From Escherichia phage ECO07P2: a stretch of DNA of 64,000 nt. Positions within the stretch are counted from its first letter, which is position 1, and every line of letters begins with the position of its first letter. The notes beneath the pieces are model-generated. The model saw nothing but the letters and a program-made list of their open reading frames with translations, ran no database searches and was not told where the DNA came from. Shown in pieces: positions 58,684 through 63,420 of the stretch. Location of the stretch: sequence record OP172785; one strand, 5' to 3'. A program made the position numbers and the translations under genes.

Positions 58684-58987
58684 TTTCTTCTCGGTTAAAT
58701 CGGTGTTTGCAATGACGGCATTTATAACGAAGATTACTAGTCTGCCAATGGACTAATTGAACCTGTTCAGTACCGCATTTTGGACAGTTCGGAACATTCT
58801 TAGAAGCCCTTTCGCGACGTTCAACCATAGCCATAATAGCATCCCAAGCAGGAGGTTTAAAGTCTAGATCGTCACAACCATGAATCTTTCCGCGCATTTC
58901 TAGATCGTCTTCTTCACCAGCCATAATAATTTTAATTAGACTGGAATTACTTGAAGCTGCAATATCTTCTAATAAACGCTTTTTCAT
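58670..58987 (-). CDS. zinc-ribbon protein (105 aa)
   Basis: CPKCG ... CRHCKHRF four-Cys motif. Confidence 0.55.
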
Positions 58988-59913
58988 TTCAGTACCTCAA
59001 TAGCATCACGTAAACCATTTGCTTTTGCATTAAGAGCTTTTAACAATTTGGTATGTTCGGCAATCTGAGCTTCAACTTCAATCAAACGAGCATTGAGATA
59101 TTCACGTTCTTCGCTCAGGTTATCAACCTTTTCTACTTTAGGTTCTTTTACAACTGGCTTATATGTATTAGGATTCTTCAGTTTAATTAGAATGCGTGAA
59201 CTGTATAGCATTGAACCATTATCTTCGGTTTCGTCATACATTTCCACTACGTCCATCATCTCCACCATCGTGCAGAGTTTATAAGACAACGAACGAATAG
59301 TTTTGTTGTGCTTATTAATTTCTCTAGCTGTCATGGTGCCGAGATTACGTGAGTAATAATAAGGAACCTGGATATTAATTAATACTGATGAACCACCTGG
59401 CTTGTGTGTTACTTCATCAGCAATAACCCAGTCCTTAACATGAACTGTATTTGTACGGTCATCGCCTGCGGTAAATAGTCTGCGAGCATGCTTAAAAAGC
59501 ATATTCACTTGGTCGTTGAATTGACAAGCAAATTTATCAGCAAATTTAGTTTCAGGAATGGTAGATAACCAATCAGCCAAATGGGTCTTTTTAACATTGT
59601 TAACAATAGTAAATTCAACCAAATCAGTTATAGATGTCTCAGATTTAATAAAGCTCGGCTTCATAAAGTTTTTAATGTTATCACGAGCTATCACAGAAGA
59701 TAGTAATCGGGAACGTTTGAACCACTCTAGCAAAGAACCAAGAGAATGTGAATACGCATTTTGTGTATCTTTACAAATATGGTTTTCCCATCCAATATAG
59801 TCTAAAAAATCACGAAGAATATTATTGATTACTGCTCTGTGTCCTATCTGATAATTACGATGTTTAGTAATAAGACTATCAAAATAATCAATATAATGTT
59901 TACGAGTTTTCAT
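58984..59913 (-). CDS. hypothetical protein with C-terminal coiled coil (309 aa)
   Basis: N-terminus MKTRKHYIDYF; C-terminal heptad-rich [44 protein letters not shown]. Confidence 0.6.
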   Translation of the reverse strand: MKTRKHYIDYFDSLITKHRNYQIGHRAVINNILRDFLDYIGWENHICKDTQNAYSHSLGSLLEWFKRSRLLSSVIARDNIKNFMKPSFIKSETSITDLVEFTIVNNVKKTHLADWLSTIPETKFADKFACQFNDQVNMLFKHARRLFTAGDDRTNTVHVKDWVIADEVTHKPGGSSVLINIQVPYYYSRNLGTMTAREINKHNKTIRSLSYKLCTMVEMMDVVEMYDETEDNGSMLYSSRILIKLKNPNTYKPVVKEPKVEKVDNLSEEREYLNARLIEVEAQIAEHTKLLKALNAKANGLRDAIEVLK

Positions 59914-59929
59914 GTTCTTCTCACTTGGT

Positions 59930-59965
59930 TAATGATTTATACTCCGAGCCATCCTTGGCTTTAAA
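59930..59965 (-). promoter_or_regulatory. promoter-like element (TATAAAT -10 with CCAAGGATGG spacer)
   Basis: Minus strand TTTAAAGCCAAGGATGGCTCGGAGTATAAAT. Confidence 0.4.
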
Positions 59966-60967
59966 TTACTTAATTAACTGTAAAGCTTGTTCAAGACGAT
60001 CCAGACGATTAACAGATTCTTCCCAAATCCTTTTAGCCTGCTCATATTCTTTCTGCGCTTTATTAGAAATTTCTAGAACTTCTTTATAAGCCTTTTCTAG
60101 TGCAATAACTTCTGGACGAATTTCTACAGGTTCAGGCGAATCATCAAGATTATCCATTAGTTCCTCAAGTGTAATTTCTTCTTTAGGAGTATTCACAATT
60201 TCATCACATTTTTGTTGGTAAATTTCTTTATCAGTCGGTGAGTACGCACATTTCACTTCACGAAGACTAACTACAATTTTATATCCTTCCCAACCGCATA
60301 TATTCTTAAAAGGATACGTATGAATATTTTCTACTGTTTCCATACAAAGTAATGCGGTTTCTAATTGACGAGTTATAGTGCTAGCAATTGAGAAAAATTT
60401 ATTAATATTCTTTTGGTTAGTTTCTGGTGTAAAAAATCCATAATTCACAAAAATAGATACTTTATTTTTATCAAGTTCATATTCTTTTATGATAATCATA
60501 TCAGAAGCCAAAGGATGAATTTGACGATAATCGCCATAACATAATTTAGAAGCTGATTTTAGAATCTGTCCTTTGAAAAGCCTGAAATTACTAATCCAAC
60601 GACGAGTAAAAATATTCTCAGGGTCTTCTTTATTATTAAGATGATAAGAATTAACATCACCGAACCAATTATATCCTATTACATCTTTGGTTCGTTTAAT
60701 TTCTTTCCCAAAATTACCAAGAATATCCCGATTAACCAAATATGAAAGAAGACGAGACTCTTTAAAGGTTTTCTTGATAACATCTTTATCTACACGACTA
60801 GAAATTTTACGAATTTCATGAATAAATTTAGTAGAAGAAACAATACCTGCATCAACACTATTGAGCCATTGATTGATAATAGAAATAACGCTATTTTGGC
60901 CAAACAACGGTATAGCTTTATCATCAATAACGCTATTGAATGATTTGATATATTCGTTACGAGTCAT
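59966..60967 (-). CDS. hypothetical protein with C-terminal coiled coil (~333 aa)
   Basis: Track start trimmed to MTRNEYIKSF after SD GAGGAG and promoter; C-terminal KAQKEYEQAKRIWEESVNRLDRLEQALQLIK. Confidence 0.6.
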   Translation of the reverse strand: MTRNEYIKSFNSVIDDKAIPLFGQNSVISIINQWLNSVDAGIVSSTKFIHEIRKISSRVDKDVIKKTFKESRLLSYLVNRDILGNFGKEIKRTKDVIGYNWFGDVNSYHLNNKEDPENIFTRRWISNFRLFKGQILKSASKLCYGDYRQIHPLASDMIIIKEYELDKNKVSIFVNYGFFTPETNQKNINKFFSIASTITRQLETALLCMETVENIHTYPFKNICGWEGYKIVVSLREVKCAYSPTDKEIYQQKCDEIVNTPKEEITLEELMDNLDDSPEPVEIRPEVIALEKAYKEVLEISNKAQKEYEQAKRIWEESVNRLDRLEQALQLIK

Positions 60968-60994
60968 ATTAATCTCCTCAGTAGAAAGTAAGAA

Positions 60995-61025
60995 CATTAT
61001 ACCACATCCTTGTGGCAAAGTAAAC
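60995..61025 (-). promoter_or_regulatory. early promoter GTTTAC-18-TATAAT
   Basis: Minus strand GTTTACTTTGCCACAAGGATGTGGTATAAT. Confidence 0.6.
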
Positions 61026-62053
61026 TAGTTTAGTGCATTTAGTGCATTGTTCAGTTTAGAACGTTGCTTCGTGAGATTTTTAACTTTTTCTTGAGCTTTT
61101 TCTAGCATCTTTTCAGCTTCTAGCACTTCATTAGTCGCTTTAACGAGTTCATCATCTACTGCCTTAAGAGACTTCTCAATCGCATCAGCATGCCATTTTT
61201 CAACAGGTTTAAGACTCGGATTTTCAGTAGGAAGAAAACTCACTTTATTAAGTTTACATGCATCTATATTGCTTGAGCTATACATCCAAAATTTAGGATC
61301 GTTTGATGAGTAATTGGATAAATTTAAATTTAAGTTATCTTGCACTTCCTGCTTTTTCTCTTGCGTGACTTCGTCCTTTCTCAAAAAATCGTATTTAAAT
61401 GAAACGATCATATCAAGTTCATATGTTGTTGTGTCTAATTTAAATCGTTCGAAATGTTGTGAAATCTTAGACTGAACAGCAGCAACAACATCCATATACT
61501 TAAATGCTTCTGTCAACTGCGATTTAAGGCATTCGCAAATTGAAAGAGAATTTTTTGTATTAGGTTTAAAGCTAATTCGTGCAGTTCTATTATTTTCTTT
61601 TAATGGTCTTACTTCCATCTGAAGAGTATAACCATCAAATTTCAGATTCTTTAAGTTAATATCAGAACCTTTTAATCGACTCGCAGTTGATAAAATTTGC
61701 TTTAATTGTCTACGGAACAGAGCAATAAATCTCCATTCAATACGATAATGATTTGGATTGAAAAATCCAGATGATAAATCGACCTTACTTTGACCAATGC
61801 CTTGAACAAATAAAGGATTTTTATAATCAATAGTTTTACAGAAATCGGTGAGCTGCTCACGAGCCGTCATTTGCGTAATATACCCTGCTTTACTAAAATT
61901 ACTCACCCATTCACTGCTATTCAGATATTTAAAGTGATGAATAACACGATTAACTTTATCAGGGTCTAAATTATTTTCACACAAAAATATCATAGCATCA
62001 CGAGTATAGCTGGCATTACGAACCATATCTTCAATTTGAGAACGAGTTTTCAT
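61025..62053 (-). CDS. hypothetical protein with C-terminal coiled coil (342 aa)
   Basis: N-terminus MKTRSQIEDMV; shares W..F.LF..Q.L.SAS.L segment with 59966-60967 product; ends LNNALNALN. Confidence 0.6.
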   Translation of the reverse strand: MKTRSQIEDMVRNASYTRDAMIFLCENNLDPDKVNRVIHHFKYLNSSEWVSNFSKAGYITQMTAREQLTDFCKTIDYKNPLFVQGIGQSKVDLSSGFFNPNHYRIEWRFIALFRRQLKQILSTASRLKGSDINLKNLKFDGYTLQMEVRPLKENNRTARISFKPNTKNSLSICECLKSQLTEAFKYMDVVAAVQSKISQHFERFKLDTTTYELDMIVSFKYDFLRKDEVTQEKKQEVQDNLNLNLSNYSSNDPKFWMYSSSNIDACKLNKVSFLPTENPSLKPVEKWHADAIEKSLKAVDDELVKATNEVLEAEKMLEKAQEKVKNLTKQRSKLNNALNALN

Positions 62054-62061
62054 GGTATTCC

Positions 62062-62973
62062 TTAAGATTTAAGTAAATCAACGATTTTAATTAACTTTTC
62101 ACGCTCAGATTTAGCTTTACTACTCAATCCAGATAGTCTGAAAATTTCATCGTCATATTGTTGAATAGAAATATTCAGCTCTTCAATCTGCTTATTAAAA
62201 TAATCAATTTGTTCAGAATGTTTTTCGTTACTACGAACTGGTACAGGTTTTGTAGGCAATGTAGTTGAACTGGATTCATTCGGGCGATAAATTAAAATAC
62301 AACTTGAACCAATAGGGCATTTTGCACCAGATGAATATTCTAATGTTCCAGCTTCTTTTAAAACTTCAAAAGCTAAACAGAGATGATGCCCCATATTGAC
62401 ATAATCTGTAGAGTGGGCTCTGATGTAATAATCATCTCCACGAATACTAAATTTAAAGCATTTAAGGTCTTCTGTATTATTGGTCTTAAAAATCATTTGT
62501 TTATCTAGACCTTTAGCTAATCGAGCGCCCAATGCTAATAATCGTCGTTGATTTTCCCACAAATCCGCAATCATTTGGTCGAATGATAATTTTGGCATTA
62601 GTCGACCATAAAGGTCATATCCTTTATTATAATTACGAAGGATTTCGCTCGCATTAATACGAGACAACGCTCCAATTTTATTAAGGGCTTTCATAATGCG
62701 ATTAGATAAACTCATTCCAGACCCGGTTGTTCGCTGCAAATGTTTTTCTAATCCAAATCCAATATCAACTTTAAACTTATCTAAAATTTCAGCATGAACA
62801 TCTTTGTCGATAACATTCAAATCCAAAGTTGGGTTAAATCTATGAAAAAATTTATCTGGCTCTCCACGACGAAGTACAGTCCATTCATTCATCATTTTTT
62901 TATTAACTAAAGATTTAATTACTGCATTGACATTATTAATTACTACTGACATATTTTCCTCACTCAATTTCAA
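62062..62973 (-). CDS. hypothetical protein with C-terminal coiled coil (303 aa)
   Basis: Track ORF; C-terminal QIDYFNKQIEELNISIQQYDDEIFRLSGLSSKAKSEREKLIKIVDLLKS. Confidence 0.6.
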   Translation of the reverse strand: MKLSEENMSVVINNVNAVIKSLVNKKMMNEWTVLRRGEPDKFFHRFNPTLDLNVIDKDVHAEILDKFKVDIGFGLEKHLQRTTGSGMSLSNRIMKALNKIGALSRINASEILRNYNKGYDLYGRLMPKLSFDQMIADLWENQRRLLALGARLAKGLDKQMIFKTNNTEDLKCFKFSIRGDDYYIRAHSTDYVNMGHHLCLAFEVLKEAGTLEYSSGAKCPIGSSCILIYRPNESSSTTLPTKPVPVRSNEKHSEQIDYFNKQIEELNISIQQYDDEIFRLSGLSSKAKSEREKLIKIVDLLKS

Positions 62974-63367
62974 TTTTACTAAATATACAGAATATGATTG
63001 AACAGACTACATAAGCGCCACACACGGATTGAACTAATACCATCCCAAAGAACCAAACAATATTATCAAACAGTGTCTGTTTTACGTCGAAAGGACGTAA
63101 ACTTACAGTAATATTATCACCTTTTTCTATTGAAGAATACATCTCTGGGGAAATATATTCACTAAATCTATAACCGTCTTTGAGTTCATATACGGCAATA
63201 AACGATAAACTAGACCCTTTTCCTTGTGTTCCTGTAATGGTATTAACTACAGTAACATCATAATCTTTATAATGCATATAATCATTAATTGCGTAATAAC
63301 CATATGCAACTACTACACATAAACAACATATCAATAAATTCAATCTTTTAATTATCAACTGTTTCAT
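62960..63367 (-). CDS. hypothetical membrane protein (135 aa)
   Basis: N- and C-terminal hydrophobic segments (LLICCLCVVVAYGYYAI ... IVWFFGMVLVQSVCGAYVVCSIIFCIF). Confidence 0.55.
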   Translation of the reverse strand: MKQLIIKRLNLLICCLCVVVAYGYYAINDYMHYKDYDVTVVNTITGTQGKGSSLSFIAVYELKDGYRFSEYISPEMYSSIEKGDNITVSLRPFDVKQTLFDNIVWFFGMVLVQSVCGAYVVCSIIFCIFSKIEIE

Positions 63368-63389: not shown

Positions 63390-63420
63390 TAGAACCATTA
63401 TACCATCCTTGGTATAAAGC
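63390..63420 (-). promoter_or_regulatory. promoter-like element with extended -10 TGGTATAAT
   Basis: Minus strand CCAAGGATGGTATAATGG upstream of 62960-63367. Confidence 0.4.

Follow-up and report, generated by a model that had tools for sequence, protein, structure and literature searches.

The nrdC.3 to nrdC.6 array of a T4-like phage is a tandem paralog family that includes an ortholog of the T4 anti-Dsr1 gene nrdC.5

Here, we identify four consecutive genes, nrdC.3 to nrdC.6, in a 64,000-nt stretch of Escherichia phage ECO07P2 DNA (OP172785; hereafter, the window) as tandem paralogs of one Straboviridae-restricted superfamily, with homology in the globular heads of the proteins as well as in their coiled-coil tails. 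We cautiously lean toward the view that the paralogs are an expanded family of early-expressed, non-essential, non-enzymatic and oligomeric immune-sensor blockers.

Results

Judged by its DNA identity, the window is Tequatrovirus (T4-like phage) DNA, with the four genes orthologous to T4 nrdC.3, nrdC.4, nrdC.5 and nrdC.6. The region is 96-98% identical to Tequatrovirus genomes, in which it is annotated as nrdC.3 to nrdC.6, and the annotation of the T4-like records ime09 and RB55 supports the nrdC.3 assignment. The original prediction of four consecutive minus-strand genes corresponding to T4 nrdC.x genes, three of them with products starting MKTR or MTR, is thus borne out, with ORFs of 309, 333, 342 and 296 aa (Table 1). 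Its end coordinate for the array, 62973, is not: NrdC.6 reaches 303 aa only if an upstream TTG at 62973 is the start, and the ATG at 62952 is most likely used, because GAGG precedes it and T4-like records annotate a 296-aa protein, so that the predicted end lay ~21 nt too far. Similarly, nrdC.4 starts at the ATG at 60967, because the TTG at 61018 falls within its promoter. The neighboring nrdC.7 product, predicted as a two-TM membrane protein, has two hydrophobic segments; it is not matched by the superfamily HMM and lies outside the superfamily.

Table 1. Coordinates of genes, tails and promoter elements in the array region
Feature	Position	Strand	Evidence
nrdC.3 ortholog	58984..59913	-	ORF, 309 aa; superfamily member; phrog_1435 at 3e-114
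nrdC.3 heptad tail, aa 263-309	58987..59127	-	continuous register, 86% hydrophobic a/d
degenerate early-promoter copy upstream of nrdC.3, AAGGATG...GTATAAAT	59937..59956	-	motif search, upstream alignment
nrdC.4 ortholog	59966..60967	-	ORF, 333 aa from ATG; superfamily member; precomputed Pfam id PF26897; phrog_1435
nrdC.4 heptad tail, aa 285-333	59969..60115	-	AF2 helix 285-332; 86% hydrophobic a/d
canonical T4-type early promoter of nrdC.4, GTTTACTTTGCCACAAGGATGTGGTATAAT	60996..61024	-	GTTTAC-N18-TATAAT with TG, then GAGGAG and ATG
nrdC.5 ortholog	61025..62053	-	ORF, 342 aa; Pfam DUF7235 (PF23882), superfamily member
nrdC.5 heptad tail, aa 289-342	61028..61189	-	94% hydrophobic a/d over 54 residues
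nrdC.6 ortholog	62062..62952	-	ORF, 296 aa from ATG; superfamily member; precomputed Pfam id PF26899; phrog_2257
nrdC.6 helical tail, aa 243-296	62065..62226	-	AF2 helices 243-272 and 278-295; heptads
nrdC.7	62960..63367	-	135-aa neighbor protein, two hydrophobic segments ~3-29 and 103-134 (hydropathy)
degenerate early-promoter-like element upstream of nrdC.7, AAGGATGGTATAAT	63398..63410	-	extended -10, poor -35

A search with the early-promoter motif found four sites versus 0.22 expected. At least two array genes had been predicted to have their own early promoter; this holds for nrdC.4, the canonical promoter of which is near-identical to another early promoter at ~15517, while nrdC.3 has only a degenerate copy. 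The upstream gaps of nrdC.5 and nrdC.6, 8 nt and 7 nt, respectively, leave no room for a promoter, and both genes are therefore probably read from upstream of nrdC.7. On this arrangement of the sequence, nrdC.7, nrdC.6 and nrdC.5 probably form one transcription unit.

The evidence for common ancestry is of three kinds. First, NrdC.3 and NrdC.4 are similar in direct comparison (blastp, 6e-7; heads-only hhalign, P 1.6e-13) and both belong to phrog_1435, and heads-only hhalign links NrdC.4 to NrdC.5 (8e-4), NrdC.4 to NrdC.6 (8e-4) and NrdC.5 to NrdC.6 (2.5e-3). Profile searches with the last 60 residues removed recovered all 61 representatives and none of 83 decoy ORFs, and the superfamily HMM matched NrdC.3 at 6e-56. 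NrdC.5 and NrdC.6 join NrdC.3/NrdC.4 through profile searches that converge even without tails; compared directly with the other families, their profiles give pairwise P values of only 1e-3 to 7e-2, and the strong links run via intermediates originally retrieved using a merged profile. Second, the heads contain the collinear motifs S-R-L-L-S..A-R-D-x-L-x-x-F and L-L-x-x-A-x-R-L-x-x-G-D-x-R, and the segment that the original prediction had noted as shared by the 333- and 342-aa products lines up in all alignments made and falls within long helix 119-140 in the NrdC.4 model. Third, in a structural comparison covering the NrdC.4 and NrdC.6 AF2 models, the core elements follow the same order (long helix, short helix, two strands, helix, two strands, tail helix). 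In Foldseek searches of BFVD, the NrdC.4 model matches NrdC.3 at 2e-8 and NrdC.6 of JS10 at 2e-5, and both models match the same 300-370-aa proteins of IME523, PM2, Acj9, Acj61, fHyAci03, Cronus, PS2 and fHe-Yen9-01. No reciprocal NrdC.3 or NrdC.4 entries were listed for the NrdC.6 model in BFVD, and no NrdC.5 entry was identified among the BFVD matches of either model. The Foldseek TM-scores are low (0.2-0.5) because of the flexible link between tail and head.

That the four proteins are unrelated and alike merely through a generic terminal coiled coil is very improbable and already contradicted by the head homology: direct blastp between families is mostly non-significant, and Pfam and PHROGs keep three families apart, but tail-trimmed searches still unite all families, the hhalign values and collinear motifs come from heads, and independently built AF2 models agree in core topology and in their Foldseek matches. 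Profile methods, the test named in the original prediction, thus detect similarity among all four proteins with the tails removed, and the proposal of diverged paralogs with a coiled-coil tail extends from the 333/342-aa pair to the whole array, heads included.

The common plan of the proteins is an N-terminal helical region usually beginning M(K)TR, an alpha/beta core, a disordered linker and a coiled-coil helix. The NrdC.4 AF2 model (pLDDT 81) comprises a helical N-terminal region, an alpha/beta core, a linker and a 48-residue terminal helix; the NrdC.6 model has a pLDDT of 78. As predicted, every protein carries a heptad-rich tail: the C-terminal helix has an unbroken register over 47-54 residues, is modeled as long helices in NrdC.4 and NrdC.6, and has hydrophobic residues at 80-94% of a/d positions. 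The NrdC.3 tail is 77-90% identical to the T4 allele versus only 37-60% in the center, conservation in the NrdC.4 family is 0.73 in the tail versus 0.60 in the head, conservation in the NrdC.5 family is highest in the last block, and the NrdC.6 tail has many invariant surface positions. The superfamily profile matched no solved structure in the PDB at the sequence level, and its tail positions gave just sub-threshold matches to the GCN4 and SPC42 coiled coils. Conserved columns comprise hydrophobic residues together with Ser75, Arg141 and Arg148. A conserved Asp, Glu, His or Cys was not seen in any column of the superfamily alignment, and we therefore read the superfamily as non-enzymatic. Membership in the tail terminator/tail completion (lambda gpU-like) fold or the RNA polymerase alpha/Rpb11 dimerization domain was rejected; these matches scored <8 without sequence similarity and covered neither the helical N-terminal region nor the coiled-coil tail.

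The superfamily is small, with only 30 cluster representatives at E <= 1e-3 among 1.84 billion, and was seen only in Straboviridae-type phage sequence. One copy adjoins nrdC in Kanagawavirus, Jiaodavirus and Karamvirus, three are present in a Mosigvirus-type locus and four here, and in Acj61 two structural homologs lie side by side next to nrdC. Phage ACG-C40 has lost nrdC.3, nrdC.4 and most of nrdC.5, nrdC.6 is kept in natural phages lacking nrdC.3 to nrdC.5, and among Tequatrovirus records nrdC.5 occurs in ~495 versus 653 for nrdC.3. Thus, the array genes are naturally dispensable and variable in copy number. NrdC.3 is 62% identical to its T4 counterpart, but unevenly so: the two leading 30-aa blocks and the final one reach 90-100% identity, and the center 37-60%. 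nrdC.3 occurs in three allele classes in which the central domain is swapped, and its dS of 0.74 versus T4 points to allele replacement rather than rapid positive selection. By contrast with this 62%, amino acid identity to T4 is 96% for NrdC.4 (dN/dS 0.16), 92.7% for the syntenic NrdC.5 (dN/dS 0.19) and 98% for NrdC.6 (dN/dS 0.05); NrdC.6-type proteins of several genera are 43-57% identical.

Discussion

T4 nrdC.5 counteracts the Dsr1 sirtuin defense (Srikant et al., eLife 2022; PMC9391042). T4 deletion mutants without nrdC.5 are viable, and nrdC.5 expressed alone restores plating of the deletion mutant on dsr1-carrying cells (PMC9391042); this one complementation experiment in T4 supplies the functional data for the family. 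The 342-aa gene is the syntenic ortholog, matching DUF7235 over its full length at 400 bits versus a cutoff of 30. The original description of the array as an undescribed module with no assignable function is therefore out of date, the more so as Pfam and PHROG families already cover each gene. NrdC.3, NrdC.4 and NrdC.6 are remote homologs of T4 NrdC.5 with the same head-linker-tail architecture, and had no match to DUF7235 itself at E <= 0.1.

Based on its similarity to the T4 protein, NrdC.5 of the window can be expected to keep the anti-Dsr1 activity. We suggest that NrdC.5 would block the Dsr1 sirtuin NADase ahead of the late capsid protein, the reported Dsr1 trigger, and that it may do so by direct binding, while the C-terminal tail would make the protein oligomeric or dock it. 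No binding partner or mechanism of NrdC.5 was found published in the literature searched. The action proposed for NrdC.5 is of the kind ascribed to DSAD1, a phage protein that is reported to repress or counteract DSR2, a defense-associated SIR2 NADase (PMC10981675, PMC11087589). As described there, DSAD1 is set apart by its target, DSR2, by the activator, a tail tube protein, and by its origin in another phage group.

The strong purifying selection on nrdC.4 and nrdC.6 versus T4 would not be expected in a fast arms race, and it counts against our proposal. It agrees better with an alternative that we consider unlikely, if far from negligible, namely that the genes are paralogs, yet nrdC.3, nrdC.4 and nrdC.6 encode host-takeover or housekeeping accessories, e.g., proteins that bind a host or phage machine, with the action of nrdC.5 on Dsr1 being lineage-specific or a side activity. 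The maintenance of NrdC.6-type proteins across several genera and the retention of a single copy at the same site in distant genera, which suggests a conserved rather than host-specific role, fit this alternative. However, the single experimental result available for the family concerns anti-defense, natural isolates lose the genes and T4 tolerates deletion of nrdC.5, copy number varies from one to four between genera, and the central domains of NrdC.3 are swapped.

The tails raise the question of whether the four proteins form one hetero-oligomeric complex with a single function such as Dsr1 inhibition. The genes are adjacent on one strand, all four tails end in L-x-x-A-L/I-x-x-L-K, which holds the most conserved columns of the superfamily, and the invariant surface positions of the NrdC.6 tail suggest a specific partner. 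Such a complex is nevertheless improbable: it is impossible in one-copy genera, natural phages have nrdC.6 without nrdC.3 to nrdC.5, and within one phage the four tails are strongly divergent except in their last 10 residues. Restoration of plating by nrdC.5 alone also argues against it, although the accessible part of that report (PMC9391042) does not state which other nrdC genes the mutant retained.

Returning to the immune-sensor blockers that we favor, gp49.2 (anti-OLD), TifA (anti-ToxIN) and IPIII are likewise non-essential T4-type genes that lie in variable regions and undergo loss or amplification under selection, and gp49.2, a published OLD inhibitor (PMC13096335), lies ~1.2 kb from the array. 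These three are single genes without paralogs described in the cited literature, whereas here one ancestral gene gave rise to as many as four tandem copies that share a coiled-coil tail. Because T4 nrdC.5 is known to disarm Dsr1, nrdC.3, nrdC.4 and nrdC.6 are candidate immune-evasion genes; we infer that they encode anti-defense proteins, the diverged heads of which would be aimed at other host defense proteins or alleles.

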